Below are positions 8,024-26,967 of a stretch of 64,000 nt of DNA, piece after piece. Origin of the DNA: a virus; the IMG/VR virus record IMGVR_UViG_3300025872_000053, positions 1 through 64,000 of that record; one strand, given 5' to 3'. Each line of letters opens with the position of its first letter. Positions within the stretch are counted from its first letter, which is position 1. The position numbers and the translations under genes are program-made. The notes under the pieces were generated by a model that was not told the DNA's origin, ran no database searches, and saw nothing but the letters and a program-made list of their open reading frames with translations.

Positions 8024-8550
8024 AACTGATTGGTTTATATGGTTTTAAAAAGTTTTGCTACACTCTGGCAGTAGCCTCCCACCTGATTAGATTAATTCCA
8101 AATTCAAAACCACCGAGAATGGTAAAGGGGAAAGAATAAGCCATCTAATCTATGTCTAACCCAACCCTGGTGCAAGGGTACAAGGGAATGTGAACTCCCC
8201 CTTTTCAATAGTCGAACTAATAACCTCTGCCTGCTCTTTCCATGAGCTTGAGCCTATATTGCTCAAGCCATGTTAAGAACTTCAATATCTTTTTCATAAG
8301 CCTATTATTAATAGCCAATACTGTCTAAATGATCAACATTAGCTGTAACATGTACAAATCCACTCTTGACATACATATCAAAGAAGAAATGTGCTACTTG
8401 TTTAAAGGAATAAAACTCTGTTGGTGTAAGTGAAATGGTTTTCATTTGATTATAATTGAAATGGTTAATAATGCTATATTAATGTTGGAACAAAAAAGAG
8501 CCCCATATGGACATACAGGGCGAATAACTCTTAAAACTCAACTGACTGAC

Positions 8551-8751
8551 TTATAATGATTTAGACTCTTTCCATGTCATATATGAGAGAAACGAACTCC
8601 CATATCCTGCAAATACAAGAATACTAAGAACATAAGCTTCTTCAACATACATAGGTCTATTATCCTTAAGAATAATAAGCATAAGAATAGTGGTTGTCAA
8701 GAAGAACATAATAACGCTGTAAACTAATAAAGACTGGTTGGTATTTTTCAT
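8551..8751 (-). CDS. small 2-TM membrane protein (67 aa; internal Met start of ORF 8551..8892)
   Basis: 'LLVYSVIMFFLTTTILMLIIL' and 'AYVLSILVFAGYGSSFLSYM' hydrophobic helices; upstream part of track ORF looks non-coding. Confidence 0.35.
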   Translation of the reverse strand: MKNTNQSLLVYSVIMFFLTTTILMLIILKDNRPMYVEEAYVLSILVFAGYGSSFLSYMTWKESKSL

Positions 8752-8930
8752 GTTAATAGGTTTTAGCACAAAGATAAGGAAAAAAGAATTGAGAGGACTG
8801 ATTACCCTCTCTGTACCGTTGTGCTGGTTGAAGCATCTATTCCCCACTACCTGATCCGTAGACCATACGCGTGGTTCGGTTGTTATTAACACATAAAGCC
8901 TGTGAATAGAATGATTGAGCTCTATATGTG

Positions 8931-9272
8931 CTAGCTAGTTTTGCTAATAGATTGAAATTTAACCATATGTGCATAAGAACTATCTTCATTATCATAAAAA
9001 TAGCCATTAAGCTCTTGTATGAAATCAGTGGTGGATGATATATCAATGAACGTAAGAACTGTAATACATGTATCATGACCAATCATATCCTCCTTAATAT
9101 AATCCTTACAATATGACTTATCAATCCATTCAGAAATCTTACGAGACCAATTTGTATCGTATTCAGAATGTGAATAAAGTTTATTAGTGAACTTAGCTTG
9201 GTCAACAGCTGAGAACGTGTGAATATACACCCTCATACAGCCATTCATTAATCTATCGAAAATAACAGTCAT
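8931..9272 (-). CDS. hypothetical protein (113 aa)
   Basis: ORF only. Confidence 0.4.
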   Translation of the reverse strand: MTVIFDRLMNGCMRVYIHTFSAVDQAKFTNKLYSHSEYDTNWSRKISEWIDKSYCKDYIKEDMIGHDTCITVLTFIDISSTTDFIQELNGYFYDNEDSSYAHMVKFQSISKTS

Positions 9273-10398: not shown

Positions 10399-10951
10399 TT
10401 GCTTTTCGATTTAAAATGTTAATAATAAAAGAGTAGGGGGACTATCCCACTCCCAATTTGTCCATAGGGTCTGCAGCTTGGAGTAGCCCTCTCTCCCTTC
10501 TATACGGTACACCCCCATATTTGGAAAAAAATTTTTGCGCAGGTCTGTAGTGTGTTCTAGAGGAACTTGGGACATCCATGAAAAATAAATTTGGTTTGTA
10601 TATCCCCTAGGGGTTAATTTTGAGGGCGGAGGGTGGGAATGTTTATTAACCTCCTTAATATAGAATAGCTATGGTATGGATCATTGGTGTTTTGTTTGTT
10701 CTTCTTCTAGCTTTGTTCATGGGCTTTAAGGGATGTTCTCAGGTGGATATTGGTTTAGAGATTAATACGTTTCAGTCTCCCTTTTATAAGATTGGAATAT
10801 TCTCTGATAGACACATGTTGGAAGATGGTAGTTTTGAGGACGAAGTGACAATTGGTTTGTTCTTTGTTAACATTGTGTTTGTGTTCTGGAAGCCTAACGA
10901 TTAATTTGAGCATAATATAGCATTAGTGTTTACAAATAACATAAATGGTTA

Positions 10952-10994: not shown

Positions 10995-11357
10995 ATGGAA
11001 CCAACAGTTAAAAAGACAATTGTACAGAAGCTCAAGAAGGCTGAGACAGATGTGTTTCAGGCAGCACAGAGGTATTATTCCATTCTGTCTGCTGTGAACA
11101 GTCTCAATCTGACAGAGAGGGAGTTACAGTTGGTAGCTTTTACAGCTGTTAAGGGAAACATTTCTTATGGTAATATAAGAGAAGAGTTTTGTGAGAAGTA
11201 TAAGAGTTCTCCTCCTACGATTAATAATATTATTTCTAAGCTGAAGAAGGTGGGGGTGTTGGTGAAGGATGGAAGTAAGATAAAGGTTAATCCTGTAATT
11301 ACGCTTGATTTTGAGAATGATGTAGTGTTGGAAGTTAAAATTACAAGCAATGGATAA
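10995..11357 (+). CDS. hypothetical protein (120 aa)
   Basis: First ORF of plus-strand operon. Confidence 0.5.
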   Translation: MEPTVKKTIVQKLKKAETDVFQAAQRYYSILSAVNSLNLTERELQLVAFTAVKGNISYGNIREEFCEKYKSSPPTINNIISKLKKVGVLVKDGSKIKVNPVITLDFENDVVLEVKITSNG

Positions 11358-11775
11358 GCCTATAAGCATGTCTGTTAAGGACTATCTCATCAGGATGATG
11401 TCTGTGAAGATGATGCTCAGTGAGAAGACTATTGAGGCAGTTGTGAACCATCAGTTTCAGAGTGCCAATGTAGCTCTTCAAGAGAATAACAGCTTGGAAA
11501 TCAGTGGGTTTGGTAAGTTTTATTTCAACCAGAAGAAGGCGCAGAAGAGGATGGAGAAGATGTTGAGTAAGGCTGAGCTGTTTGCAAAGCAGGCAGCAGA
11601 CGAGTCACTGTCAGAGCAGAGAAGAAATTCGGCAGCAGTGAAGCTGGCAAACACACTAGCTGGTATAGAAGTTTTAAAACCAAAATTACAAACCAATGAA
11701 AATCAATCTGTTACAGATCTACGAGGGGTGGAAGAATCACTTGATCCCTGCGTCAGATATGAAGGAGCAGATTAA
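11350..11775 (+). CDS. HU/IHF-family DNA-binding protein (141 aa)
   Basis: 'LSEKTIEAVVNHQFQSANVALQENNSLEISGFGKFYF' aligns with HU '[37 protein letters not shown]' incl. GFGxF arm motif. Confidence 0.6.
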   Translation: MDKPISMSVKDYLIRMMSVKMMLSEKTIEAVVNHQFQSANVALQENNSLEISGFGKFYFNQKKAQKRMEKMLSKAELFAKQAADESLSEQRRNSAAVKLANTLAGIEVLKPKLQTNENQSVTDLRGVEESLDPCVRYEGAD

Positions 11776-11794
11776 ATCTGTTAGTGAGAGCAGG

Positions 11795-12022
11795 ATGGCT
11801 ATCTGTAAGGAGTGCCACTACTACTCAGAGAACAGGAAGAAGGATGGTAAATACACCACCTCTAGACCAGATGTACATTGTACAAATTGTGGATGTACAC
11901 TGGCTGCCAAGACTAAATGTCTGTCTTGTAACTGCCCAATGAAATATTGGAAAGCTTTGATGACAGATGATCAGTATGACGAAATAAGAAACACCCTAGG
12001 GGAAGATGATGGCGAAGGATAA
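11795..12022 (+). CDS. Cys-rich zinc-binding protein (75 aa; internal start of track ORF 11696..12022)
   Basis: MAICKECHYY...HCTNCGCTLAAKTKCLSCNCP; ATG 19 nt after upstream stop. Confidence 0.45.
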   Translation: MAICKECHYYSENRKKDGKYTTSRPDVHCTNCGCTLAAKTKCLSCNCPMKYWKALMTDDQYDEIRNTLGEDDGEG

Positions 12023-12302
12023 ACAAGTCACTATTAAGAAGATTCACTTGGACAGTCTTATAGGTATACTGGTCGACCTTTATGATAAGGGGGTGGATTA
12101 TGTTGACATTATAGGATTGAATGACAAGATTCAGGACACCATAGGTATTTCCTTCTCGAAGGAGTATATGAACACAGAGCTAAGAGAAAACTTTGACAAT
12201 ATTCCCACTACAAACAAAAAGGAAACTGACAGTAGTGATGAGAATGTTAAAGCTAAAATAAATATTAAACTGTCGGATGACGACTTAAACCAACTGTTAT
12301 GA
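12006..12302 (+). CDS. hypothetical protein (98 aa)
   Basis: ORF, overlapping coupling with neighbours. Confidence 0.45.
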   Translation: MMAKDKQVTIKKIHLDSLIGILVDLYDKGVDYVDIIGLNDKIQDTIGISFSKEYMNTELRENFDNIPTTNKKETDSSDENVKAKINIKLSDDDLNQLL

Positions 12303-12481
12303 ACCCAGTAGTAGAAGCATGGATTGTTATTGAGAAATTAGGAGCTCTTGTTGCCACACCAGGTGTGTCAGAAGAAGTGAAGATTGCAGCCAACGAACAA
12401 ATTGAGAAACTTCTAAAGGACGTTGTTGCTCCAAGTCTTTCAAAACTATCAGCTAAGGAAGCAGGGCTCTTGATTAAATAA
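12299..12481 (+). CDS. hypothetical protein (60 aa)
   Basis: ATGA coupling. Confidence 0.4.
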   Translation: MNPVVEAWIVIEKLGALVATPGVSEEVKIAANEQIEKLLKDVVAPSLSKLSAKEAGLLIK

Positions 12482-12487
12482 TGGCCT

Positions 12488-12778
12488 ATGAAAAGGAAAC
12501 CAAACTATCACAAGCAAATCATGACTCTTCTGGAGGATTTGCACAAAACCTATCCTGATTATAACATGGGTAGGCATCTTTCCACAGCGTTAGATGGTTA
12601 TGGAGAAGTGTGGGGATTGTCAGACAAAGAGTTTGTGTTCCTGCTAGAGAAGTATAAAACAAGGATGGAATTAGATATTCCTCATATAGCAGACAATGAG
12701 GAGCTTGATCAGATACTGAGAGAGGGGATGGATTTAGACAGTCTGTTTAAAGAAGAAGAAGATGGCGACAGCTATTAA
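12488..12778 (+). CDS. hypothetical protein (96 aa)
   Basis: ORF. Confidence 0.45.
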   Translation: MKRKPNYHKQIMTLLEDLHKTYPDYNMGRHLSTALDGYGEVWGLSDKEFVFLLEKYKTRMELDIPHIADNEELDQILREGMDLDSLFKEEEDGDSY

Positions 12779-13100
12779 AAAAACTACATATATTAATGCA
12801 GAGCTTGATTGGGCAGAGCAACAGCTTACGTCCTGGAAAGCTTATGTGGATGCAAATCCCTTGCATGAACTAAAAGACAGAATTGAATGGAAGCCTACAG
12901 CTAAAGGAGGAATGTTACCTATGGTGATAGCCTCTATTGAAGCACAGGGTAAGTTCATTCAGGAGACAATGAAGAACTATCTAGCTCTTCTTGAGGTGGT
13001 TGATAAGCTACGTAAAATAGAAGAAGCTAAGGTGGAAGTGAGGGGAAAGGGAGAACTTAGCTCAATGGCTGAAGATTTCCTGAAAAGTAGGAGATCATGA
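12762..13100 (+). CDS. hypothetical coiled-coil protein directly upstream of terL (possible small terminase subunit)
   Basis: Position and ATGA overlap with terminase; no motif. Confidence 0.35.
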   Translation: MATAIKKTTYINAELDWAEQQLTSWKAYVDANPLHELKDRIEWKPTAKGGMLPMVIASIEAQGKFIQETMKNYLALLEVVDKLRKIEEAKVEVRGKGELSSMAEDFLKSRRS

Positions 13101-15133
13101 GCATAATTCAAAGTGTGGATTATAAAGACTGGTTCATTAACCAGAAGCGCATTCCTGACAAAGAGAGTGAGGAGTTTAGAGACTTTTTTAACTTTCATAA
13201 GGATTTGTGCTTAAATGGATGTATGATGAATGGGGTGTATATCAACCCCTTTTTATATTGGCACTTGAACATCTGGCACACAGAAGTGGATGTCATAGAT
13301 GAGAGAGGTAGAATCAGCCAACAATATGCAAATCCACTGCTTCGTGATAATGAGTGGATAGTAACCAACGAAATAGATAAGGCTCAACAGGAGAAGAAAG
13401 GGCTAGTTATTCTAGGAATTAGACGTTTTGCTAAGTCTGTTCTTGAGGCTAGTTATATAGCATGGGGAGCTACGTTTGATGAAAACAGTCAGAATATTAT
13501 TGCTGGATTGAATGCTCCAGATATAAAACTGATTACAGATAAGATTGACAAGGGATTAAACTTCCTTCCAGAAGCTTGGAGATGGCAGAGAATTGAGGAT
13601 AATTGGAAGAACCAAGTGACTTTAGGTATTAAAACAAAGGGAGGAGAAAGGATACCGTTCTCCCAAATCCTTATACGTAACCTTGATGAGGGTAATAATG
13701 AGGAAGCTATTGCAGGTACAAAACCAAGAAAACTAATTATTGATGAGATTGGTAAAGGGAATTTTCTCAGAGGATTTCAGGCAGCTGTGCCTGGTTTCAC
13801 CACACCTTTTGGATGGGGTTGCTCTCCTATTCTTACAGGTACAGGCGGTGATATGAAGAAATTCATGGATGCAAAGAGCTTAATGTTCGATGTAGACAAC
13901 TTTAACTTTCTTACATACAATAATGAAAAAGATACAACTAGAGTACATGGACTATTCATCTCCTACAAATATAGGATGGAAGCTAAAGAAGACTCCAGCC
14001 TTGGTGCGTTTCTTGAGCAACCAACTGATAGCGATTTGCACAATATCCCTATGCTGGTTAGCAATGAGGAAAAAGCAAAACAAATAACTACAACCAACCT
14101 TGAAAGATTAAAGAAGGCTGGAGATAGGGTGGCATATCTTAAAGAAAAGATGTACTACCCATTGGAAGTTGATGATATATTCCTTAACGAGGACACTAAT
14201 ATATTTGATATTGAAGCTGCCAAGAGGCAGAAGACTAGGATTCTTCAGAATGACCGTACAGGTACTTCTGTTGTTCTGTTCTCTGATGGAGAGAAGATAG
14301 GGCATGAGTTTTCAGACAAACAGCCCATTACAAACTTCCCTCTCAAGAACAGCGATCTGAAGGATGCTCCTGTTGTAATATATGAGTTCCCTGTAGCAAA
14401 TCCTCCTTATGGATTGTATGTTGCAGGAGTTGACCCATATAGGCAAGGACAATCTGCATATAGCTCATCTTTAGGTGCTGTGTATATTTATAAAAGAATG
14501 CATGACCTAACAGGTGAGAAATATCAAGATATGTTCGTAGCTTCGTATGTAGCTAGACCTGATAAGAAGGAAACTTGGGAAGAACAAGCTAGATTGCTTA
14601 TCAAGTATTACAATGCTAGAACGCTCTGTGAAAATGATGATATCTCCTTCATAGAATATATGAAAGCAAAAGGAGACGCTCACTATCTTGAGAAACAACC
14701 TCAATGGTTGATGGAGATTGTACCAAACACCACAGTTAAACGTGAATATGGTATACATAGAAGTTCTCAAAAGATAATTGACTATCTTCACAACTGCTTG
14801 AAGAAGTATTTGGAAGAAGTTATACACACAGAGAAGGACGATAATGGAAACCTGATTAGAGAGATAACAGGCGTGAGCAAGGTGTTTGATCCTGTTCTTC
14901 TAGAGGAGATAATACAATACCATGATCAAGGAAACTTTGACCGTATTGTAGCAGCAGAACTAGCAATAGCACAGGCTCTCAAACTTGACCCAATTATGGG
15001 TAGAGTTGGAGGAAGCGGTGATGAAAGAGTGAAAGCATTATTCACAAACAGAGGTGGTGGTATAAAATTGTTTGACACAAAATCACCAGGAATGTTTGGA
15101 TCAAGTAAATACAAACGTAAACTTTTTACATAA
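13097..15133 (+). CDS. terL: terminase large subunit (678 aa)
   Basis: Deviant Walker A 'GIRRFAKS', Walker B 'KLIIDEIG', nuclease-domain 'VAGVDPY'; immediately precedes portal. Confidence 0.8.
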   Translation: MSIIQSVDYKDWFINQKRIPDKESEEFRDFFNFHKDLCLNGCMMNGVYINPFLYWHLNIWHTEVDVIDERGRISQQYANPLLRDNEWIVTNEIDKAQQEKKGLVILGIRRFAKSVLEASYIAWGATFDENSQNIIAGLNAPDIKLITDKIDKGLNFLPEAWRWQRIEDNWKNQVTLGIKTKGGERIPFSQILIRNLDEGNNEEAIAGTKPRKLIIDEIGKGNFLRGFQAAVPGFTTPFGWGCSPILTGTGGDMKKFMDAKSLMFDVDNFNFLTYNNEKDTTRVHGLFISYKYRMEAKEDSSLGAFLEQPTDSDLHNIPMLVSNEEKAKQITTTNLERLKKAGDRVAYLKEKMYYPLEVDDIFLNEDTNIFDIEAAKRQKTRILQNDRTGTSVVLFSDGEKIGHEFSDKQPITNFPLKNSDLKDAPVVIYEFPVANPPYGLYVAGVDPYRQGQSAYSSSLGAVYIYKRMHDLTGEKYQDMFVASYVARPDKKETWEEQARLLIKYYNARTLCENDDISFIEYMKAKGDAHYLEKQPQWLMEIVPNTTVKREYGIHRSSQKIIDYLHNCLKKYLEEVIHTEKDDNGNLIREITGVSKVFDPVLLEEIIQYHDQGNFDRIVAAELAIAQALKLDPIMGRVGGSGDERVKALFTNRGGGIKLFDTKSPGMFGSSKYKRKLFT

Positions 15134-17718
15134 TGGCAATAATAAGATATACGAAAGACGCTACTATCAGATACGCCTATCTGAACATTTTTCCTGATCA
15201 ATTTAAAACTGAGAAGGAGAAAAAAGATGAGAGCTGGATTAAAAACACAATGGACTATTTTGCCAACAAAGCTTATGCTGAGTATGTAAAAAATAGAGAT
15301 ACGTTTGTAAAGAACTATGACCTTGTAAAAGGTATTCTTCGTATGGAGGATTTCTATCAAGAACCTCAAGTGAGAAGCTTCACTGATATGCTCACAGCTG
15401 ACCTACAGTTACCTGCATATGTGAAACACTACTCTATCATCACCACGCCAATTAACGAGCTTGTTGGAGAGATAACAAAGCGTCCTGATGGTTTCAGGAT
15501 TAAAGCATTTGATGAAGACAGCCAGTCTGAAGAACTTGAATTTAAAACAGATATTCTTCAAAACTACGTTATCACTCAAGCTAAACAAAAGATACAAGAG
15601 AATCTTGCTCTTCAGGGACAAGAGATAGATGAAGAACAACTTCAACAGATGACTCTTGAGGAAGTGAAAGATGAACTTGATTCTTACACTTCAGCAGCAG
15701 AGAAGTGGGCTAACCACATTCTTACAGCTACAAAAGCTGAGTTCAATATCAAAGAGAAGTCTGAAGATGCCTTCAGAGACATGTTGATATCTGCTCGTGA
15801 ATACTACCACATCTATGAGGATAACTCAAAGGTGGGATATAACATTGAAGTGGCTAACCCTAAGAACACTTGGTTCTTAACAACACCAGATAGAAAATAC
15901 ATTTCTGATCCAACAGGTAGAGCACAAGGTGCTTATGCTGCTGGTACAGTGCAAGTGATGGAGCTTTCTGAAATTATTGAAAGTGTTCCTGATCTTACAA
16001 AGGAAGAAATAGACCATCTAAGAAGTTCTCTCCAAGACTACGGACTTATTAATGTTCGTGAATCCAACCTAGGTAACCCTAACGTAACACCAGGCATTGA
16101 TTCAGTGACATACGATACGTATGATCCACTAGTTCTTCAAACTCGTATGATTATCGAAAGTGAAATGAAGGAGAACAATGATGGTCTAAAAGATTTCTTA
16201 GGACTAACATCAAATGTGTCTTCATTTGGATACAAGTATGTAGTGGTGAGATGTTATTGGTTGAGTAAGAAGAAGATAGGTAAGCTTATCTACTTGGATG
16301 AATTAGGAAACGAACAGTCTACATTAGTAGATGAAAACTACAAGAGTGGAACTATTCCTACAGAACAAAGCTTAGAGTGGGGATGGATTAATCAGTGGTA
16401 TCAGGGAATTAAGGTTGGACCAGATATCTATCACATCAAACCATTCAAGCTTCTTAACTATTGTCCAATCATTGGTATTAATTATGAAGTGAAGAACACT
16501 GAGGCTAAGAGTCTTGTAGACTTGATGAAACCTTTCCAAGTGTTGTATAACGTATGTATGAACCAGCTTTACAAACTCCTTGAGAAAGAAGTGGGTAAGG
16601 TTTATCTAACATCTATTAGACACGTTCCTGTTCCAAAGGATGGTGATGCACAAGATGCTCTTGACATTTGGGAAATGGAAGCTAGAAATAGAGGTGTGGT
16701 ATTTATTGATGACTCTCCTGAGAACCTCAAGAGCCCAAGCTCATTCAATCAGTTTAGAGATATTGATCTTACACGTACGCAGGAGATTCAATCTAGATAT
16801 CAACTTGCTATGCAGTTGAAGAATGAGTGTTGGGAATTGATTGGTATGACAAGACAAAGACTTGGTTCTGTTACAGCTAGTGAGTCTGCTACAGGTACAC
16901 AAGCTGCAATTCAACAATCATATGCTCAAACAGAACCATTGTTTGTAGCACATGAATATGTTCTTGGTCAATTGTACCAAGCAATCATTGATGCTTCTTT
17001 GTATGTAGAAAGTAAGAAGCCTCAGTCAACTATTTCATATATCACTTCAGATGGAGAGTCTGCATTTGTACAAGTGAATGGTACAGATCTTAAGTTCCGT
17101 GATTTGAAAGTGTTTGCAACTAATAGACCTGAAGATAAGAAATCATTTGAAGAAATCAGAAGCTTGTCTCAAGCTGTTATTCAGAACGGTGGTTCTCTAC
17201 ATGACATCATTGAGCTTTACTCTACTGATTCATTGAGACAAATGAAGAAGGTATTCAAGCAGCTTAAGGATAGACAACAGCAGTTGGAAGATCAGAAGAT
17301 GCAACAGCAACAGCAGCAAATGGAGCAACAAGCTCAAATTGCACAAGCTCAATTGGAACAAGCACAGCTTGCTAATGAGCAGAAAATTGCAAATGACAAC
17401 TACCAGAAAGAGCTTGACAGAATCAACAAGAAAGAGATTGCTATCATTCAAGCTACAGGATTTGGTAGAGTGGAGAGTGAAGATGCTAATGCAAACGCTG
17501 TTCCTGATGTGTTAGAGGCAAGTAAGTTTGCTAGTGAGGAAGCTGCTGCAGCTAAAGACTATCAACTTAAGATGTCAGACATACAGAATAAGAACAGACT
17601 TGCTGCTGAAAAGCTACAGCTCGAAAGAGAAAAGCTACAGCTAGCTAGAGAAAACCAAGCAAACGATCTAGCTATTGCTAAGGAGAATGCTAAAGGTAGG
17701 AACAAAAAATCTAAATAA
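15133..17718 (+). CDS. portal protein (861 aa) with Gln-rich coiled-coil C-terminus
   Basis: Position directly after terL, size, start overlapping terL stop; C-terminal QQQQQQMEQQAQIAQAQ coiled coil. Confidence 0.6.
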   Translation: MAIIRYTKDATIRYAYLNIFPDQFKTEKEKKDESWIKNTMDYFANKAYAEYVKNRDTFVKNYDLVKGILRMEDFYQEPQVRSFTDMLTADLQLPAYVKHYSIITTPINELVGEITKRPDGFRIKAFDEDSQSEELEFKTDILQNYVITQAKQKIQENLALQGQEIDEEQLQQMTLEEVKDELDSYTSAAEKWANHILTATKAEFNIKEKSEDAFRDMLISAREYYHIYEDNSKVGYNIEVANPKNTWFLTTPDRKYISDPTGRAQGAYAAGTVQVMELSEIIESVPDLTKEEIDHLRSSLQDYGLINVRESNLGNPNVTPGIDSVTYDTYDPLVLQTRMIIESEMKENNDGLKDFLGLTSNVSSFGYKYVVVRCYWLSKKKIGKLIYLDELGNEQSTLVDENYKSGTIPTEQSLEWGWINQWYQGIKVGPDIYHIKPFKLLNYCPIIGINYEVKNTEAKSLVDLMKPFQVLYNVCMNQLYKLLEKEVGKVYLTSIRHVPVPKDGDAQDALDIWEMEARNRGVVFIDDSPENLKSPSSFNQFRDIDLTRTQEIQSRYQLAMQLKNECWELIGMTRQRLGSVTASESATGTQAAIQQSYAQTEPLFVAHEYVLGQLYQAIIDASLYVESKKPQSTISYITSDGESAFVQVNGTDLKFRDLKVFATNRPEDKKSFEEIRSLSQAVIQNGGSLHDIIELYSTDSLRQMKKVFKQLKDRQQQLEDQKMQQQQQQMEQQAQIAQAQLEQAQLANEQKIANDNYQKELDRINKKEIAIIQATGFGRVESEDANANAVPDVLEASKFASEEAAAAKDYQLKMSDIQNKNRLAAEKLQLEREKLQLARENQANDLAIAKENAKGRNKKSK

Positions 17719-18248
17719 TGTTTGATAAACTCATAGATCTGCTCACTTCGTGGTGGAATTACATCATACCTGCTGTAATTGTTCCTAGCTATGAACAAGC
17801 AGTTCTATTGAGGAATGGTAAGTTTAAGAAGGTACTGGAACCAGGGTTCCACGTGAAACTTCCAATATTTGATGAGGTGATAAGTCAGCACGTTGTAATT
17901 ACAACCTTGAGTTTAGCAGCCCAATCGCTCTATACAAAGGATCGTCAGAACATTGTGGTGAAAGGAGTTATCAAGTATAAGATAGCTGATGTGAAGGTTT
18001 TCCTTCTTGAGGTGTTTGATGCTCAGGATGCTTTGGCTGACATGACACAGTCTATCATTAAGAACATTGTAATATCCTTACCGTTAGAACAGTGTATTGA
18101 TCCTGAGATTGATAACATCCTCACTAAAAAGGTGAGGGTAGAAGCTAGAAAATGGGGTGTTGACATTCAACAAGTCACCCTTACAGACATAGCTCCTATA
18201 CGCAGTTTCAGGATAATAAATGACTCTATACTAAACAAACTTGATTAG
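17718..18248 (+). CDS. SPFH/band-7 (stomatin/HflKC-like) domain protein (176 aa)
   Basis: 'EQAVLLRNGKF...GFHVKLPIFDEV...YTKDRQNIVVKGVIKYKIADVKVF...ARKWGVDIQQVTLTDIAP' matches SPFH blocks (ERAVVFRLGK / PFIDxV / TKDNVxVxVDAVVYYRV / WGIxVxRVEIKDI); N-terminal hydrophobic segment. Confidence 0.7.
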   Translation: MFDKLIDLLTSWWNYIIPAVIVPSYEQAVLLRNGKFKKVLEPGFHVKLPIFDEVISQHVVITTLSLAAQSLYTKDRQNIVVKGVIKYKIADVKVFLLEVFDAQDALADMTQSIIKNIVISLPLEQCIDPEIDNILTKKVRVEARKWGVDIQQVTLTDIAPIRSFRIINDSILNKLD

Positions 18249-18366
18249 AGTAAAAAATAATAATGCTATATTATCCCGAATATTGGGTGATATAGTGTTC
18301 TATGTCTTTGTTAATAACTAATTCTAATATACTTTTACGCTGAAAACCAAATAAATAGAACTACAT

Positions 18367-19623
18367 ATGGCCGAAAATCTAGATACTCCATCATTTGGAA
18401 ACTTTAGCATTGAGAACACAATGGAAATGGGAATGGGTAATGCAGATCTTTTAAACGATCTCATGTCTCCTGAAACTGCCACAGGTTCTCCTGATGACAT
18501 TAAAACAATTGATGAACCTGCTCCTCCAGCTCCTGAAAAGAAAGCTGCAAAAGCTGCTTCTGCTCCTCAGGAAGAAAAGAAGGAAGAAGAGAATGTTGAC
18601 ATACAGAGTTTTCTGTATGGAGATGATAATGAGGAAGAGGAAGAAGAGGAAGTGGTTGATAAACAACAAGTTAAGAAAACTCCTGAAGCTAAACCTGAAG
18701 AATCTTCAGATGAGGAAGAAGGTGAAGAAGAACAAGTTAGTCAATTCACAGCTCTATCTAGAGACCTTTTCAAACTAGGTGTCTTTTCAAAAGATGATGA
18801 GGAAGAGGATACACCAATATCCACTCCTGAGGAATTTCTTGAGAGATTCAACCTAGAAAAGAAAAAAGGTGCAATTGAGGTGGTGAATAATTTCATTGGT
18901 CAGTTTGGTGAAGATTACCAACAAGCCTTTGATGCCATCTTTGTAAAGGGTGTTAACCCTAAGGATTATTTCGGCACATATAATCAAATACAGAGTTTTT
19001 CAGAAATGGATCTGTCACAAGAGAATAATCAGGTGGCAGTTATTAAACAAGCTCTAGCAGACCAAGGCTTTGATGCTGAGGACATTACAACAGAAGTGGA
19101 GCGTCTGAAAAACTATGGTGATCTCGAAACTGTTGCTACAAAACACCATAAGGTGCTTGTTAAGAAGGAAGCTGCAAAGCTCCAACAAATGGAACAGGAA
19201 AGAGAATCACAATTAAAACAACAACAAGCGTACAAACAGCAATACGTTGCTAATGTACAAACGGTTTTACAGGATAAGCTCAAACAAAAAGAGTTTGATG
19301 GTATTCCTCTAAACCCAAAACTTGCTAGCGAACTACAAGATTTCCTTCTAGTAGATAAGTACAAGACATCCTCTGGAGAAACACTCACAGACTTTGACCG
19401 TACAATACTAGAACTGAAGCGTCCTGAAAATCATGAAATGAAGGTGAAGGTTGCTCTTCTACTCAAGATAATTGAGAAAGATCCAACACTATCCACAATT
19501 CAGAAGACAGGAATTACCAAAAAATCAAATGATCTTTTTGGTGAGGTAGCTAGACAAGCTTCCAAATCTTCAGTGAAATCTAGCAGTGGTAAATCAAGCA
19601 AGCCTAATTCTTGGTTCCTTTAA
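18367..19623 (+). CDS. scaffolding protein (418 aa, acidic/coiled-coil)
   Basis: Poly-E runs, coiled-coil middle, located between portal and major capsid gene. Confidence 0.55.
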   Translation: MAENLDTPSFGNFSIENTMEMGMGNADLLNDLMSPETATGSPDDIKTIDEPAPPAPEKKAAKAASAPQEEKKEEENVDIQSFLYGDDNEEEEEEEVVDKQQVKKTPEAKPEESSDEEEGEEEQVSQFTALSRDLFKLGVFSKDDEEEDTPISTPEEFLERFNLEKKKGAIEVVNNFIGQFGEDYQQAFDAIFVKGVNPKDYFGTYNQIQSFSEMDLSQENNQVAVIKQALADQGFDAEDITTEVERLKNYGDLETVATKHHKVLVKKEAAKLQQMEQERESQLKQQQAYKQQYVANVQTVLQDKLKQKEFDGIPLNPKLASELQDFLLVDKYKTSSGETLTDFDRTILELKRPENHEMKVKVALLLKIIEKDPTLSTIQKTGITKKSNDLFGEVARQASKSSVKSSSGKSSKPNSWFL

Positions 19624-19659
19624 TTTTATTTATAACCTTTAATTTAAAAGATAACACAA

Positions 19660-21213
19660 ATGGCAATTCAAACAATCCCAGGTTTAACTGGATTTACGTA
19701 TGCTAGGGTGGCTTCTATGGATAAGCGTGCTGTTGGTAAGCTTACCGATGCTAACCACCTGGAGAGCTTCCACTCAACTGAGCCAGCTGATTATGACAAA
19801 AAGATCATCAGCCTTTACACTCAGAGCTCCCTCTATAGCAATGACTTCTTGGACATGATCAACAAGTCAACCCCTTATTACATTGACAACAACAGTGATG
19901 CATGGAAATGGCAAGTTGCAGTTCCATACAAGTTCCCAAAGATCATTGATGTACCTACTTCTACAGCTGAGCTGTCTAAGCCTGGTATTGATGGTCAAGA
20001 ATTCCAATTGGTACTTGATACCAATGAGTTCTCTAAGAACGCTATCGTTTCTGTTGGTTCTCGTCAGTATGGTCCTCGTTTCTATGTTATCAAGGATCCA
20101 GTTCCTTGGAACATGGGCTTCCTTTATTCTTTCACTCTTATCAGTGACAATCCTACTGTAGATTTCGTATCTTCTACTTTCTTGCAGTATGGTATTGAAC
20201 TTGAGCTTGTAGATGCTGCTATTGGTGAGTTCGATCAAGATTTGCTTGGTCTTCCTCGTCTTGGTGAGCAAATCACTATGTTTGAATCTTTAGGTTCTGC
20301 ATATGGTTTCGAGCACAAGATCACTGAGTGGGCTGATGACAAAATGATGCGTGATGCTTCTGGTAAGCCTCTTGACATCCTTGTTTATGCTCCACAGCGT
20401 AGGAATCAACTTCCTCTTACAAGAAACGATGTTAAATGGGAACCATTCATCGAGTTCTGGATGCGTAAGTCTATGCTTGAATTGAAAGTTAAGCGTATGA
20501 TTTGGGCTAAGCCAGGCACTGTTAAAACAAATGGTAGCAAGCAAGAATTGAAGCGTACTTCTGCTGGTGTTTATCACAGAATGCGTAACAACGGTAACTT
20601 GGTACAATACAATCGTGGTGAATTCTCTGCTAACTTGATTCGTTCTGTATTTGGTGATTTGTTCTACAGAAGGGTTGATGTTAAAGATCGTAGAGTTAAA
20701 ATGTACACTAACGAAGCTGGTTTTGACGTATTCCAACAAGCTTTGAAGAATGACGCTTTGAACAGTGGTCTTACCTTCATGGCTGATTCTGGAAATCGTT
20801 ATATGCAAGGCGAAGGTCAGCACATCACTTATAACTTTGCATTCGATGCAATGGTTACTCGTGAGACTGGTCGTGTTGAGTTGATTCACTTGAAAGAGTT
20901 GGATCTTCCACAATCTAACCTTGAATTCGGTCAGAACAAGAAATCTACTCCTGTATTCATGGTATTTGATGTATCTCCAATGAGCGATGGTTCAATGGTG
21001 AACAACATCCGTGAAGTAAGAATGAAGGGTGCACCTTCAATGACTTGGGGATATATTGATGGAACTCGTCACCACTTAGGCTTTGCTAAGTCTCAGGGTA
21101 TGAGCTCTGCTAACAAGTTCCCTGGTTATGAGATTTGGATGAAAGACCGTTGCGATGTATTCATTGAGGATTTGTCTCGTACAGTTCTTATTGAGGAAAT
21201 CCCACAGTTCTAA
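19660..21213 (+). CDS. major capsid protein (517 aa)
   Basis: Gene following scaffold; followed by strong structured/terminator region typical of a highly expressed capsid gene. Confidence 0.6.
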   Translation: MAIQTIPGLTGFTYARVASMDKRAVGKLTDANHLESFHSTEPADYDKKIISLYTQSSLYSNDFLDMINKSTPYYIDNNSDAWKWQVAVPYKFPKIIDVPTSTAELSKPGIDGQEFQLVLDTNEFSKNAIVSVGSRQYGPRFYVIKDPVPWNMGFLYSFTLISDNPTVDFVSSTFLQYGIELELVDAAIGEFDQDLLGLPRLGEQITMFESLGSAYGFEHKITEWADDKMMRDASGKPLDILVYAPQRRNQLPLTRNDVKWEPFIEFWMRKSMLELKVKRMIWAKPGTVKTNGSKQELKRTSAGVYHRMRNNGNLVQYNRGEFSANLIRSVFGDLFYRRVDVKDRRVKMYTNEAGFDVFQQALKNDALNSGLTFMADSGNRYMQGEGQHITYNFAFDAMVTRETGRVELIHLKELDLPQSNLEFGQNKKSTPVFMVFDVSPMSDGSMVNNIREVRMKGAPSMTWGYIDGTRHHLGFAKSQGMSSANKFPGYEIWMKDRCDVFIEDLSRTVLIEEIPQF

Positions 21214-21220
21214 TAACCTC

Positions 21221-21360
21221 TCTAGAGATAGTATCTCTAGACAATTCCTACCGAGAAGAGCCCTCCTCCCTACCTCCCACCTTTGGAGGGCTCTCCTCAA
21301 ACTACAGATGGATGGATTGGGGTGTCTCCCAGTCGCATTCCCTTCGATGGGACCCATCTG
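21221..21360 (+). other. GC-rich multi-hairpin structured element downstream of capsid gene
   Basis: Perfect inverted repeat tctagagata-g-tatctctaga (21221..21241); 10-bp stem agagccctcc/ggagggctct (21257..21294); cagatgg...ccatctg with internal atgggacccat palindrome (21305..21360); ~55% GC in a ~35% GC genome. Confidence 0.55.
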
Positions 21361-21391
21361 CAAATTAAAACCAAGTTAAAATAAACTACAT

Positions 21392-22360
21392 ATGGGTAAG
21401 ACAGGAAAAATCTCCACTATTAAGAAGGAGTATAATAGCTCACAGTTGCAGACAATGCAAAGCGGTTTGGCTCAAAAAGGTCTAACAAGAATCCCTGGTA
21501 CAGGCGTATTCAAGTATCCTTACAAAGAACTTGATGGTCAGTATAGAACAGGATTAGATCCACAAGCTGCATACATTAGAAGAATTGGTGATCCTACTGA
21601 AAGAGAAATTGAGATTGAGCGTGTAACAGCTCTTCGTGACAAGCTTCAAGATGCCCTTGGTGGTATTGATCTTGGACCACGTTCTAAGTTTTGGAACTAT
21701 GGACTCTCAACTTCTACAGATGACGTGCTGCATGTACAACCAGTAAAACTTGTAGATGGAGATAATTATTTCGATCTTTCTGTTCCTCTACAGGAACTAG
21801 CGTTTGCTTGGTTACGTGTTCACCCAACAATTGCAAGCTCTTATCAAGCTTGGGAGCGTGGTGAGTTTCCAGCAGAAACACAGTTCTATGTAGCTGATGA
21901 AGATATTGAAAATGCAGTGATGTTTAAGAAGAAACAACTTATCAATAAAGCTATTGTTAAGTTTGATTCTATGACTCCTGAGAAAAAGAGAAAGGTTGCT
22001 CGTTTATTAGGTTTACCAGTGACAGAAGATACAAAAGAAGAAGCTGTGTATAATCAAGTGGACAATCTTCTCAAACAAACAGAATTCAAGAATGGTAAAT
22101 ACCAAGGTCTCAATCCAGTTGAGATATTTGGAAGATTTGCAGATATGAAGGAAAACTTACTCCATATTAAAGACTTAGTTAAGCAAGCTTTGTCACATTC
22201 GGTTTATAGAATTAAACCTAATGGAAGAATATACGAAGGTGAATATGAAGTGGCTATTGATGAAGAGGAATTGGTAAAGTTCCTTGCAGATGAGGATAAT
22301 CAAGATGAATTACTCACCCTAGAACAAAAATTAAAAAGTAAAAAATTAGCTTCTGTATGA
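21392..22360 (+). CDS. virion-associated hypothetical protein (322 aa)
   Basis: ORF in head/connector gene region. Confidence 0.5.
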   Translation: MGKTGKISTIKKEYNSSQLQTMQSGLAQKGLTRIPGTGVFKYPYKELDGQYRTGLDPQAAYIRRIGDPTEREIEIERVTALRDKLQDALGGIDLGPRSKFWNYGLSTSTDDVLHVQPVKLVDGDNYFDLSVPLQELAFAWLRVHPTIASSYQAWERGEFPAETQFYVADEDIENAVMFKKKQLINKAIVKFDSMTPEKKRKVARLLGLPVTEDTKEEAVYNQVDNLLKQTEFKNGKYQGLNPVEIFGRFADMKENLLHIKDLVKQALSHSVYRIKPNGRIYEGEYEVAIDEEELVKFLADEDNQDELLTLEQKLKSKKLASV

Positions 22361-23088
22361 TACCTGTAGATAGTTTGTTGTACAAGATAGATCAGAAACT
22401 AAATAAGCTATCAACCAACGAACATCAGCAGATAGTATTAGAAGATAAAATCTTGGCTTTGAATGAAGCTCAGATTAAATTAATAAAGCAAAAGGTTGAT
22501 GGTATAAGTACTGTTTCTGGTCTGGGATTGGATGCCTTTAAGAAAAGGTATGAAGATCTCCAGAGTTTAGTAGAATCTTATAATCATCAACCTCTTGATC
22601 TTACTCTAATGAACGAAGAGGTTCACCAATATGCAGCATCATTGCATGCATTGACTCCTAAATATATGTTTTATTTAGATAGTTACATATTGGCTGATAA
22701 AGGAAGATGTAAGGACAGGGTGATATGGGTTAATAGAGATTTAGCAAAGCATGGTGATTTGCAATTCATTTTGAATAACGATCATTACAAACCATCTTTT
22801 GAATATCAAGAAACCTTTAACTTCTTATCATCTGATCAGATAAGTGTCTTTACAGATGGTACGTTCATACCAACTAAAATTTACATAATGTACATGAGGT
22901 ATCCTCAGTATATTAACAAAGAGGGATACATCATGCTTGATGGTACACCATCATTCAATCAAGACTGCGAACTTGAGACTTATCTAGAGGATGAACTTCT
23001 AGACTTGACAGTTCAAAACCTTGCAATGTACACCGAAAATCAGTCTGCTGTCCAGAGTTCAATCTATAGGATACAGACAAACGAATAA
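22357..23088 (+). CDS. virion-associated hypothetical protein (243 aa)
   Basis: ATGA coupling with upstream gene. Confidence 0.5.
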   Translation: MIPVDSLLYKIDQKLNKLSTNEHQQIVLEDKILALNEAQIKLIKQKVDGISTVSGLGLDAFKKRYEDLQSLVESYNHQPLDLTLMNEEVHQYAASLHALTPKYMFYLDSYILADKGRCKDRVIWVNRDLAKHGDLQFILNNDHYKPSFEYQETFNFLSSDQISVFTDGTFIPTKIYIMYMRYPQYINKEGYIMLDGTPSFNQDCELETYLEDELLDLTVQNLAMYTENQSAVQSSIYRIQTNE

Positions 23089-23115
23089 GTTTTTTAATCA
23101 TTAAAATAGCACAAA

Positions 23116-24273
23116 ATGGCTGATTTTTCATTAACTACGCTCTTCGTAGTTCCAGTAGGAAACTCTCTACCTAGCTCTGGTTCTACGCAAGACTTGACCG
23201 CAGGTCAATTTGGTATCTTTAGGAGTGATTACAGTGTTGCAAACGCTGGTAACATCGCTGCTAAACCATACTTCTATTTAGCTCAAGGTAGAACAAACAC
23301 ATATCTTCAAGGTTCAAAGCGTTCTGATAAGATCGCTGGTTGCGTTGATGGTAGCTGTAAATCTAACGTTACTGAGTGGTACAAAGTAAGTGGTTGTCCT
23401 CTTCCTGCTACCCAAGTAACAGATGTATCTGGTTGGAATGTACAGTGTGGTGATATCGTAACACTTACACTTCGTGCACACTCTTCTTACCTTGATACTT
23501 TGTATTTCAATGGTTTCACTCGTTCTGTAACAGTTCAAGCTCCTTGTTGCGAGTGTGGTGGTGACCCTTGTACTAATGTTGATGTACCTGCATTGATTGA
23601 TCAGTTCATCTATCAATTGACTCTTCAGGCTCCTGGTAACAACCCAGACAACATCAACTTCAACGATTTCTATCAATTCCAAAGAATTGGTAACGATCAA
23701 AATGCTATCCTCCGTATTTCTGGTAAGCCTCTTACCAAGTATGGTCAGCCTTGTGACGTTGCTGCATTCCCTTGGGAGTATGACAGAATGTGGTTCCGTA
23801 CTTTCGTGTACAGTGGACCAGCTACTACTGCTGACTTCATCGTAGCAGATGCTTGTAACATTGTTGCTGATGCTCAAGTTATTCAGCGTGCTTCTTATCC
23901 TTCAGGTACTTCTGATGAGATCAAGCAGCTCGAGAAGAACTTCTATAGCTATCAAGCAGGTTACTTGAAGCATCTTTACAGAATGGCAGGTTACAACGAG
24001 AACTTTGAGTCTTGGGTTTCTGACGGTACTACCTATGATACCTTCTACATCAAGTTCAACGAATATGACAAATCTGCTTATTCTTGGGGTGACTACATCA
24101 AGGAAGATAGCACTGTAATCATTGCTGCTCCTCAAGCTTTGAGTGCTGCAATTCAGGCTGTTCTTGAGGCTGGTCTTGGTCTTGTTGCTGATGATAATGC
24201 TTGTGTAAGCACTACATCTACAACTACCACTGTATGGCCTACAACTTCAAGCACTACCACTCTTGTTCCTTAA
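23116..24273 (+). CDS. structural protein with poly-Thr C-terminal tail ending ...TTTLVP (385 aa); possible auxiliary capsid/decoration or tube protein
   Basis: Own terminator downstream; Cys-rich middle; C-terminal STTSTTTTVWPTTSSTTTLVP. Confidence 0.5.
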   Translation: MADFSLTTLFVVPVGNSLPSSGSTQDLTAGQFGIFRSDYSVANAGNIAAKPYFYLAQGRTNTYLQGSKRSDKIAGCVDGSCKSNVTEWYKVSGCPLPATQVTDVSGWNVQCGDIVTLTLRAHSSYLDTLYFNGFTRSVTVQAPCCECGGDPCTNVDVPALIDQFIYQLTLQAPGNNPDNINFNDFYQFQRIGNDQNAILRISGKPLTKYGQPCDVAAFPWEYDRMWFRTFVYSGPATTADFIVADACNIVADAQVIQRASYPSGTSDEIKQLEKNFYSYQAGYLKHLYRMAGYNENFESWVSDGTTYDTFYIKFNEYDKSAYSWGDYIKEDSTVIIAAPQALSAAIQAVLEAGLGLVADDNACVSTTSTTTTVWPTTSSTTTLVP

Positions 24274-24302
24274 TAAGAGGTAGAAACAATATCATATAAC
24301 CT

Positions 24303-24350
24303 AAGCCAGAGGGTGAGAGGATCTTCTCAAATCCTCTGGCTTATTTATTT
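24303..24350 (+). terminator. Rho-independent terminator
   Basis: 10-bp stem aagccagagg/cctctggctt, loop 20 nt, followed by ATTTATTT. Confidence 0.6.
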
Positions 24351-24358
24351 AGAAGAAC

Positions 24359-24922
24359 ATGGCAGACTTGAAATTAGATTTTTTAGTAATTCCTACATAC
24401 AACGTACAAACGTTGGGTATTGCTGATGCATCAACTTACCCAGCAGCTCCTCCTGTTAGCTCTCCTACAATAGAGATAGATGTTCCAGGATTTGGTCTAG
24501 TCAGCCTTCCATTTAACATAAATGACTTCAACATTTACACTACTGCTTCATTAGGAATAACTTCAGTTGGTGATCCTCTGTTACCACTTCCTGATGGAGT
24601 TTATTATATTAAATACTCTGTTGCTCCTGCATATCAGAACTTTGTGCAGAAAACAATAATGCGTGTTGATCAACTTCAAGAGAAGTTTGATAGTGCATTC
24701 ATGAAGCTTGATATGATGGAATGTGATGCAGCTATTAGAAAACAACAGATGGTTGATCTAAACAGCATCTATTACTTCATACAAGGATCTATTGCTGCTG
24801 CAAATAATTGTGCTATTGATACAGCTAATAAACTGTACAATCAAGCAAATATGATGTTAAACCAATTCATAGCAAATAGGTGTAATTGCTATGGTAACAA
24901 TTATGTAAACAATTTCTATTAA
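24359..24922 (+). CDS. hypothetical structural protein (187 aa)
   Basis: ORF. Confidence 0.5.
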   Translation: MADLKLDFLVIPTYNVQTLGIADASTYPAAPPVSSPTIEIDVPGFGLVSLPFNINDFNIYTTASLGITSVGDPLLPLPDGVYYIKYSVAPAYQNFVQKTIMRVDQLQEKFDSAFMKLDMMECDAAIRKQQMVDLNSIYYFIQGSIAAANNCAIDTANKLYNQANMMLNQFIANRCNCYGNNYVNNFY

Positions 24923-24923
24923 T

Positions 24924-25067
24924 ATGGCAAACTGTAGAAACTGCGGTGTTAAAGTTGGATGTGGCTGTCAATTGATAAACGGTCTATGTTCAGCTTGCAA
25001 CAATGCTATTAAACAAGCTACTAAAAGAATAAAGAATGTTATATCCAAGGCTTACAAATTGCGTTGA
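24924..25067 (+). CDS. Cys-rich micro-protein (47 aa, MANCRNCGVKVGCGCQLINGLCSACNN...), not in ORF track
   Basis: 6 Cys in first 25 aa, style similar to CxxC N-termini of neighbouring fiber genes; overlaps start of 25036 ORF in another frame. Confidence 0.3.
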   Translation: MANCRNCGVKVGCGCQLINGLCSACNNAIKQATKRIKNVISKAYKLR

Positions 25068-25302
25068 TTGTTCTAGCGTTCCTGCATTGCTTGCAGATAT
25101 TGATTGCAAGCTTACAGAACTAGCTAAGAATGAATATAACAATATTGTGTTTCAATTAAACTGGCCTGTTCCAGGAACAGTGATTTGGGATCTTCTCAAC
25201 TACAAAAGAATACTTACTTACAAGTATTGTAGCCCAGAATATGCTGGATCATATTCCATAGAAAGAATAGCTAGTAGAGTTAAAATATTAATCAATAAAT
25301 AA
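25036..25302 (+). CDS. hypothetical Cys-containing protein (88 aa)
   Basis: ORF. Confidence 0.4.
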   Translation: MLYPRLTNCVDCSSVPALLADIDCKLTELAKNEYNNIVFQLNWPVPGTVIWDLLNYKRILTYKYCSPEYAGSYSIERIASRVKILINK

Positions 25303-25311
25303 ATTATACAA

Positions 25312-26439: not shown

Positions 26440-26457
26440 CAAATAAACTCTAAATAA

Positions 26458-26787
26458 ATGGCTTGTACTCCAGGTTCACCATGTAATCCATTGGTTGTCA
26501 ACACTGTATATCCAAAGAAGTGTAACAACGGATGGTTTGCTGGCTATCCAATATCAACAAATTTAATATGTTATAATGGTCCAAATCTGCCAAATACAGG
26601 TGTCAATACTAATGATAACCTGAATCTGGTTTTAGAAAAGATTGACGCAGAGTTGGATCCAGTAACCTTAGCAGAAACATTATTACAAACAATTGCAACA
26701 AATGTTTCCCTTCTTACAGCTTTCTGTGAGATAGCTAACCTTTGTGCCTCTTACACAACCACAACTACCACCACGGTAGCACCATAA
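26458..26787 (+). CDS. small fiber-anchor-domain protein ending in TTTTTTTVAP (109 aa)
   Basis: N-terminal domain paralogous to N-terminus of gene 61809.. ('TGVNTNDNLNLVLEKIDAELDP' vs 'TGINTNDNLQTALEKIDAKFAD'). Confidence 0.55.
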   Translation: MACTPGSPCNPLVVNTVYPKKCNNGWFAGYPISTNLICYNGPNLPNTGVNTNDNLNLVLEKIDAELDPVTLAETLLQTIATNVSLLTAFCEIANLCASYTTTTTTTVAP

Positions 26788-26797
26788 ATTATCAAAA

Positions 26798-26940: not shown

Positions 26941-26967
26941 CTGTAATTTTAACTAAAATCTAGTCCA

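Follow-up and report, generated by a model that had tools for sequence, protein, structure and literature searches.

A minimal SPFH/band-7 gene as optional cargo of an exchangeable portal/scaffold slot in crAss-like phages

The DNA analyzed here, positions 1 to 64,000 of IMG/VR record IMGVR_UViG_3300025872_000053 (hereafter the window), is by its gene content a piece of an uncultured crAss-like phage. Between its portal gene and its putative scaffold gene lies a gene for a 176-residue protein of the SPFH/band-7 family, which we call mini-SPFH. Comparison with sibling phages shows that this gene is an optional, dispensable accessory and not part of the head-assembly machinery: near-identical relatives carry it, carry unrelated cargo at the same point, or carry nothing there. 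The protein, judged by its sequence and modeled structure, belongs to a large phage-borne family made up of the SPFH core domain and one amphipathic helix. An original prediction, made from the letters of the window alone, had proposed both the SPFH identity and the position between portal and scaffold, with a start codon overlapping the portal stop. These proposals hold: the ATG of mini-SPFH and the TAA of the portal gene have one base in common (TAATG; context ...AAATAATGTTT...).

An exchangeable slot between portal and scaffold genes

How widely the gene is shared depends on how relatives are sampled. When the SPFH protein served as the seed, all 73 of the 73 IMG/VR loci found read TerL–portal–SPFH–scaffold–major capsid protein (MCP), as though the gene were fixed in the clade. 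This sample is biased by its seed, and the apparent fixation was overturned by a census seeded with the MCP, which covered the best 80 of at least 596 matching IMG/VR contigs. Sixty-two of the census loci spanned both the end of the portal gene and the start of the scaffold gene. The junction held the SPFH gene in 41, a different insert of ∼595 bp in 13, an open reading frame (ORF) of 73 residues in one, and no gene in seven, where only 126–145 bp separate portal and scaffold genes. After de-duplication to 53 distinct loci, the corresponding numbers are 33, 12, 1, and 7. The synteny that the original prediction proposed to check in relatives is thus found in part, with the order portal–SPFH–scaffold in 33 of the 53 distinct loci and other cargo or none in the remaining 20.

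The phages that differ in this way are very close to one another. Siblings in the census have MCPs 96–100% identical to that of the window and whole portals 81–93% identical, and those without the SPFH gene fall in nearly the same ranges (MCP 96–100%, portal 81–90%). The slot states are interleaved on the MCP tree, with at least nine changes. The common alternative cargo (found in L117, L118, L120–L123, L125, L127, L131, L133, L154, L172, and L173) is a pair of overlapping ORFs, the first of which starts on the portal stop with the identical TAATG overlap (Table 1); neither ORF has a match in Pfam, PHROG, or the PDB. Because the junction holds alternative cargo, the SPFH gene, or no cargo while a downstream sequence element is kept in every variant, we conclude that it is a defined and exchangeable slot. 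And because the SPFH gene is absent from near-identical siblings, head assembly does not need it.

The nearest isolate extends this pattern beyond the clade. Leptolyngbya phage Lbo-JY46, whose TerL, portal, and MCP are 41, 30, and 26% identical to those of the window, has the order TerL–portal–scaffold–MCP with nothing between portal and scaffold, and a tblastn search found no match to the SPFH gene anywhere in its genome. It was also the only match to the window MCP in a tblastn search of 50,697 phage records. A search of the same records with mini-SPFH gave seven weak matches, none of them crAss-like, and megablast with positions 13–23 kb of the window gave no match. One further relative, L067 (IMGVR_UViG_3300049043_000100), has SPFH and scaffold proteins ∼80% identical to those of the window, with TerL, portal, and MCP matching at 42–64% in short pieces, which reflects either mosaicism of the phage or an assembly full of frameshifts.

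These data bear directly on the possibility that mini-SPFH is a head-assembly factor, acting as a membrane-anchored platform or chaperone for the portal or procapsid or standing in for a prohead protease. The analogy would be to gp40, which serves portal assembly in phage T4. The position between portal and scaffold with its overlapping start would fit such a role, as would the near-constant distance between the two flanking genes, which is 647–653 bp in 38 of the 41 carrying loci. But the slot is empty or filled with unrelated cargo in 20 of 53 distinct loci, and the unrelated cargo is coupled to the portal by the same TAATG. Moreover, the gene is absent from Lbo-JY46, lies away from the portal in other crAss-like lineages, and encodes neither a transmembrane anchor nor a protease domain or motif. 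Natural absence has already largely refuted this explanation, and we regard it as very unlikely. The original prediction had taken the position usual for a prohead protease as a clue to function; the head module here is of the P22/crAss type and has no such protease, and in Lbo-JY46 the scaffold follows the portal directly. Its suggestion of membrane-associated assembly likewise fails, given the 20 distinct sibling loci without the gene and a protein that has no transmembrane anchor and none of the coiled coil from which SPFH cages are built.

Although dispensable, mini-SPFH is a real functional gene under purifying selection. Its ratio of nonsynonymous to synonymous substitution rates (dN/dS) against the window has a median of 0.065 over 39 pairwise comparisons, with dS near saturation, a value comparable to those of the MCP (0.057) and portal (0.050). 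Among relatives the protein is 65–96% identical, about as divergent as the portal, whereas the MCP is 94–99% identical. The coupling to the portal and the location upstream of the putative control region of the abundant scaffold and MCP suggest that mini-SPFH is translated together with the portal and expressed late and at a low level.

Presence, absence, and replacement that alternate among near-identical phages are typical of arms-race loci, and they raise the possibility that mini-SPFH is a counter-defense or superinfection-exclusion effector, blocking a membrane-associated defense or a second infection, with the slot holding alternative host-interaction genes. The faster divergence of the SPFH protein relative to the MCP is in keeping with this idea. 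Against it, the low dN/dS bears no mark of diversifying selection, expression late and coupled to the portal would be odd timing for such a role, and PADLOC models gave no match at E≤0.01, in a library that models defense and not anti-defense proteins. We consider this explanation quite improbable.

An SPFH core without anchor or coiled coil

The assignment to the SPFH/band-7 family is confirmed far beyond chance. Pfam Band_7 (PF01145), the search proposed by the original prediction, matches residues 21–160 (E=4.4e-24) with a score of 85.9 bits, the cut-off being 23.6. Among PDB sequences, human stomatin is the top match to a profile built from close homologues (E=1.5e-13), followed by QmcA, HflC, and HflK. 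An AlphaFold2 model built from 71 diverse family members has a predicted local distance difference test score (pLDDT) of 93.6; it replaces a discarded model from 18 sequences of 81–97% identity, which reached only 64.7. Foldseek places this model closest to stomatin in the PDB (E=2e-14, query TM-score 0.77, probability 1.0) and also matches it to HflK/C, QmcA, prohibitin, erlin, and flotillin, with query TM-scores over the whole set of 0.62–0.77.

In canonical SPFH proteins such as stomatin, HflK/C, QmcA, flotillin, and prohibitin, the domain is preceded by a membrane anchor, either a transmembrane helix or an intramembrane hairpin, and followed by a long coiled coil, which builds the closed cage. 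Mini-SPFH departs from this plan at both ends. At the N terminus, where the original prediction had seen a hydrophobic anchor, the model has instead a charged amphipathic helix: the Kyte-Doolittle mean over 19 residues peaks at 1.31, short of the 1.6 usual for a membrane span, and the hydrophobic moment is 0.60. The first 17 residues contain a median of four charged residues across the family, with D3, K4, and D7 conserved. Hydropathy analysis of the N terminus thus indicates neither a membrane span nor an export signal. In a hidden Markov model alignment, the helix lies opposite FTVITFPISIWMCIKII, the distal part of the hydrophobic hairpin of stomatin, and it looks like the vestige of a membrane anchor. 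At the other end, no coiled coil is present, as the protein stops 16 residues past the SPFH core; alignments end at residue 178 of 256 in stomatin and residue 164 of 305 in QmcA, leaving ∼80 C-terminal residues of stomatin unmatched. The short tail that remains bears a motif whose arginine, R165, is near-invariant (69 of 71 family members).

The domain searches also constrain what else the protein might be. Band_7 is the only confident domain, and neither Pfam, NCBIfam, nor PHROGs reveals a protease domain or motif; a protease or protease substitute, which was considered as a candidate, is ruled out by these scans. In PHROGs there is just a weak match to phrog_200 ("lipoprotein"), and the family has no PHROG of its own. 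Of the NCBIfam models, HflK is the best (E=6e-18), yet the score falls well below the equivalog cut-off (TIGR01933, 65.2 versus 159.4 bits), and that for HflC is likewise missed (TIGR01932, 44.3 versus 134.4 bits).

Mini-SPFH proteins form a large family. When 1.84 billion cluster representatives were searched exhaustively with a profile, 5107 matched, 980 of them with E values below 1e-10 and 73 with values under 1e-30. Median length among the best 150 of these clusters (50% identity) is 176 residues (5th–95th percentile, 154–190). The family signature is an N-terminal M-F-D/E-K-L-I-D/E...W...P helix, the SPFH core, and a C-terminal S-x-R-L/I within ∼170–185 residues, and the window protein fits it. 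The family also seems to be phage-borne: wherever a sampled context outside the clade was informative (L074, L101–L103, L107, L110–L113, and L197/L198), phage genes are present. A second homologue search with a diverse family profile returned only the same crAss-like clade, at 53–86% identity (all but one at least 65%), and a scan with the single family protein P0124 gave no match. Two rare members differ in architecture: in P0197 a two-helix hairpin, a real membrane segment, is inserted behind the first strands, and in P0152 a membrane span at the C terminus takes the place of the end of the domain. These membrane segments hint that the family works at the membrane.

The homologues go under the name "HflC, regulator of protease activity" in metagenome pipelines. 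Because the proteins have no anchor and no coiled coil and miss the equivalog cut-offs, this label is an over-call, and annotators should drop it for mini-SPFH proteins. The underlying idea, however, that the protein works through host SPFH complexes, deserves separate consideration. Mini-SPFH could be a modulator or poison subunit of the HflK/C type that takes the place of host SPFH proteins or intercalates into their rings, changing the FtsH- or NfeD-type proteolysis to which membrane proteins of the phage or host are subject. HflK is its best NCBIfam likeness, its fold matches the HflK/C and QmcA cages, and a core without a coiled coil would be the architecture expected of a cap or a dominant-negative subunit; one distant member (L074) is, in addition, followed by a secreted trypsin-like protease. 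On the other hand, the equivalog cut-offs are missed widely, the gene stands alone and not as a K/C pair, no signal or span is present that would take the protein to the periplasm, and Pfam and PHROG scans of the flanking ORFs (10995–30399 and 35524–36906) found no NfeD, FtsH, or ClpP-type gene. We view this role as unlikely. A strict mimic of HflK/C is unlikely for a further reason, as the SPFH domains of HflK/C lie in the periplasm, enclosing FtsH, and mini-SPFH has no route there.

Genomic contexts and possible functions

The contexts in which mini-SPFH genes are found outside the clade, although a small and opportunistic sample in which several contigs are too short to inform, are varied. 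In two sets of crAss-like relatives the gene lies elsewhere in the genome. In L112 and L113 it is upstream of a gene for a 110-residue TerS-like protein and TerL, and in L112 it stands between genes for tRNA-Met(CAT) and tRNA-Cys(GCA) at 520–611 and 1150–1226, consistent with a tRNA region that houses a mobile accessory gene. In L197/L198 it lies between CrAss_Ring_1 and a 970-residue virion protein, overlapping the stop of CrAss_Ring_1 with its start. In the 45-kb podovirus MW202733 it directly follows TerL. Other phages carry it in lysis neighborhoods, near endolysin genes: L101/L102 have the order Phage_lysozyme–phrog_2524–SPFH–secreted protein; L103 has Peptidase_M15_4–phosphoesterase–small ORF–SPFH; and L074 has SPFH–secreted trypsin-like protease–Peptidase_M15_3–small ORF–phrog_2524. 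The mini-SPFH gene is thus mobile among the late-gene regions of phages, and what its contexts have in common is not the portal but late or structural blocks, with envelope-lysis genes in four cases.

The arrangement in L074, a high-GC phage contig, is of some interest in its own right. Directly after mini-SPFH, at 8533–9162, is a gene for a 209-residue trypsin-like serine protease with a signal-peptide-like N terminus. This pairing of SPFH and protease recalls stomatin–NfeD operons, although the class of protease differs.

A first way to read these contexts is that mini-SPFH is a virion-associated accessory, packaged as an internal or cargo protein or associated with the portal or ring, that acts on the host membrane at ejection or stabilizes the particle. 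All three positions in crAss-like phages are within the structural block, and at two of them, behind the portal gene and behind CrAss_Ring_1 (L197/L198), mini-SPFH starts on the stop codon of the structural gene before it. Jumbo phage CBB has a Band_7 protein that carries the annotation "structural protein." SPFH proteins have also been detected in proteomes of phage preparations, at low counts and in one case in a crude lysate (PMC10892097, PMC6034870). These detections, however, are of full-length SPFH proteins, at very low counts and partly in crude lysates, and outside the crAss-like phages the gene lies in lysis cassettes or non-structural contexts. Siblings with MCPs 96–100% identical and portals 81–90% identical to those of the window, moreover, have no such gene. 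On balance we think a virion role rather unlikely, while keeping it in view.

The explanation that we favor, if tentatively and with somewhat less than even confidence, is that mini-SPFH is a cytoplasmic, late, and dispensable accessory that attaches to the host membrane at its inner leaflet and scaffolds or shields a membrane client. The protein would remain in the cytoplasm, having no transmembrane anchor and no export signal. Its amphipathic helix and a face of SPFH1 would dock it on the inner leaflet, where, late in infection, it could serve as a small scaffold to corral or shield a client embedded in the membrane. The likeliest clients would be the lysis apparatus, through the timing of holin or spanin, or a membrane-bound protease, FtsH for example; manipulation of host proteolysis had also been suggested by the original prediction. 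What the phage would gain is fitness and not viability.

Several points weigh against this explanation. First, the location in the cell, the client, and the effect of mini-SPFH are all things that we infer, and without a coiled coil the protein may not oligomerize at all. Second, the link to lysis comes from four of ∼12 informative contexts; others are of a different kind, with GTP cyclohydrolase I (L111), an ATPase and a DUF932 protein (L107), or small ORFs without assigned function. Third, Pfam and PHROG scans of the flanking ORFs of the window recognized no lysis gene near mini-SPFH. Fourth, the three crAss-like positions inside the virion-structural block would fit a packaged protein equally well. 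Finally, the dispensability that it presumes was read from an MCP-seeded census limited to the best 80 contigs, all of them from metagenome assemblies.

A bolder variant may also be considered, which we put forward as speculation and likewise judge unlikely. In it, mini-SPFH is a cage-less derivative of stomatin/HflK that acts as a diffusible microdomain cap, either poisoning host SPFH cages or gating holin rafts to set the time of lysis. The slot would then be a point of exchange for late effectors that manipulate the host, occupied by the SPFH gene, by the tiny HExxH protein with its acidic partner, or by nothing.

Gene neighborhood, conserved element, and relation to known systems

The crAss-like assignment of the window follows from its crAss-type MCP (PF23898, E=1.5e-27), P22-type portal, and TerL. 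A run of giant ORFs (1705, 1787, 860, 3969, and 1548 residues) is also present, as is typical of crAss-like genomes. The window has a G+C content of ∼36%. Table 1 lists the features of the packaging and head block together with the other contents of the slot.

Table 1. Features of the mini-SPFH locus in the window and of the slot in sibling phages (window coordinates unless a contig is named)
Feature	Position	Strand	Basis or remark
TerS-like candidate, 112 residues	12762..13100	+	Position only; start of packaging block
TerL	13097..15133	+	phrog_6681 E=8.7e-88
Portal, P22/crAss type	15133..17718	+	PF16510 E=1.3e-16; phrog_6547 E=4.1e-104
Mini-SPFH gene, 176 residues, ATG start	17718..18248	+	PF01145 E=4.4e-24; pLDDT 93.6; dN/dS 0.065
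N-terminal amphipathic helix, residues 2-16 (FDKLIDLLTSWWNYI)	17721..17765	+	Model; conserved P18 next
SPFH alpha/beta core (SPFH1+SPFH2), residues 19-160	17772..18197	+	Model pLDDT 96-98; Pfam 21-160
C-terminal tail, residues 161-176	18198..18245	+	pLDDT 57-67; motif S-x-R-(L/I)-(I/F)
Conserved intergenic region, putative control region, 118 bp	18249..18366	+	3' border of cargo slot; precedes scaffold-MCP
Inverted repeat GCTATATTAT-CCCGA...TTGGG-TGATATAGT	18265-18296		After SPFH stop; terminator scan, 15-pair stem
Putative scaffold, 418-residue acidic protein	18367..19623	+	By position between slot and MCP
MCP, crAss type (Crass_capsid)	19660..21213	+	PF23898 E=1.5e-27; phrog_11589 E=1.3e-31
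Alternative cargo: 78-residue acidic ORF and overlapping ∼84-residue ORF	L117 3102-3570		Invariant LHEHFHLKHPDWSE (HExxH, zinc-peptidase-like) in second ORF
73-residue ORF in slot	L170 3404-3625
Empty slot	L157 3611-3750 and six other loci		Conserved downstream element still present

Two of the neighbors are assigned chiefly by position. The putative scaffold protein has a sole PHROG match, to phrog_16294 of unknown function (E=1.6e-9), and nothing over threshold in a Pfam scan. The 112-residue protein at the start of the packaging block, for which Pfam and PHROG scans gave no match, is a candidate for the small terminase subunit; the 110-residue product of the gene between mini-SPFH and TerL in L112 shares 65% identity with it (E=1e-55). 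The 112-residue protein is far better conserved than its neighbors, the TerL of L112 being just 43% identical to that of the window.

A search of six-frame ORFs with the family profile (hmmsearch) identified mini-SPFH as the sole SPFH gene in the 64 kb. The window contains no tRNA genes, no Rfam match at gathering thresholds, and no sign of a temperate lifestyle. A scan of genome contigs with the mini-SPFH protein of the window returned no relative and hence no prophage or host clue; such hints to the host as exist are one homologue binned in a Cytophagia metagenome-assembled genome and the closest isolate, which infects a cyanobacterium. At the far end of the window, from 61803 to 64000 and running off the end, is an open frame of at least 732 codons with GTSG-type glycine-rich repeats, which accounts for a jump in G+C to 0.45 and for many spurious ORFs in other frames. 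It probably encodes a tail fiber with a collagen-like or glycine-rich stalk.

The 3' border of the slot is marked by a strongly conserved element. A 13-mer, TAATGCTATATTA, at 18261–18273 is near-invariant in 73 distinct related intergenic sequences, one of which has C for T at position 7, whereas flanking synonymous sites are saturated. It occurs three times exactly in the window, against ∼0.002 copies expected by chance; the additional copies are at 8469–8481 on the plus strand and at 10913–10925 on the minus strand, the latter where leftward and rightward gene blocks diverge. The 13-mer is followed at fixed spacing by the blocks CTCTTTG, TACTTTTAC, AAACCAA, and ACTACAT-ATG, and the element is kept in empty and alternative-cargo loci as well. 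On this evidence the region is probably a phage promoter and 5' untranslated region for scaffold and MCP. An inverted repeat (18265–18296) overlaps it, the left arm lying within the invariant motif and the outer CTATAT/ATATAG arms being kept in 60–90% of relatives. There is no T-run and no real covariation among relatives, and support for pairing is weak, which makes a structured RNA or terminator an unconvincing reading; the repeat may be either an RNA hairpin or a DNA operator.

Phage SPFH proteins as such are already known, if uncharacterized. What is new here is the truncated architecture as a large phage-borne family, the presence of an SPFH gene in a crAss-type head module, and the portal/scaffold junction, now shown to be an exchangeable slot in head modules that, for crAss-like phages, are usually treated as invariant. 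No new kind of head assembly is revealed. The minimal SPFH protein is widespread in uncultured phages, with hundreds of clusters at 50% identity, and the crAss-like clade is very abundant in the environment (at least 596 IMG/VR contigs). SPFH proteins are now being reinterpreted, on structural grounds, as cages by which membrane proteases and channels are set apart. Near-identical genomes that carry, lack, or have replaced the gene offer a natural experiment on an SPFH core without a cage. In the literature we found no experimental study of a phage SPFH protein and no paper linking Crassvirales with stomatin; for Crassvirales the sole SPFH mention found is in one 2026 preprint, which reports a BACPHLIP match to cd03408 (SPFH-like) in a gut crassvirus without analysis. 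Papers on phages usually treat SPFH proteins by analogy with HflK/C and lambda CII.

Of the characterized systems, the stomatins (human 9OH9/9Z7U, Escherichia coli QmcA 8Z5G, and Pyrococcus PH1511) are the best match in both sequence and fold, with the same SPFH1+SPFH2 core. Stomatin and mini-SPFH are 22% identical, however, and the phage protein is ∼100 residues shorter, without the full hydrophobic hairpin or span, the coiled coil, the C-terminal segment, or an NfeD partner gene. With these parts missing, the known way of assembling a 16- or 26-subunit cage is closed to it. The comparison with HflK and HflC of E. coli is similar: the core fold is alike, but those proteins have 419 and 334 residues against 176 and come as a pair with transmembrane helices, periplasmic targeting, and coiled-coil domains, whereas mini-SPFH is encoded by a single gene and has none of these.

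Among viruses, annotated SPFH proteins include gp29 of Pectobacterium phage CBB, the Vi01-like "SPFH band 7 lipoprotein," those of Stenotrophomonas phage DLP3 and Rhizobium phage Pasto, and proteins of the mimivirus group. Most of these have 260–500 residues with anchors and helical extensions, and none is known in a crAss-type head module. Closer in form are two uncharacterized proteins of other phage groups, in other gene neighborhoods. A0A6J7WFI0, a 173-residue "HflK" of an uncultured Caudovirales phage in BFVD, has the same architecture and length (TM 0.87–0.88, 29% identity), and the "prohibitin-like protein" of podovirus MW202733 shares the mini architecture and the length and matches residues 1–169 at 25% identity. 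Finally, the slot itself resembles the moron or accessory slots in the late operons of tailed phages, which likewise have a discrete insertion point with conserved borders and alternative or no cargo. Morons differ in bringing their own promoter and terminator, whereas the cargo of this slot has translational coupling to the portal instead.

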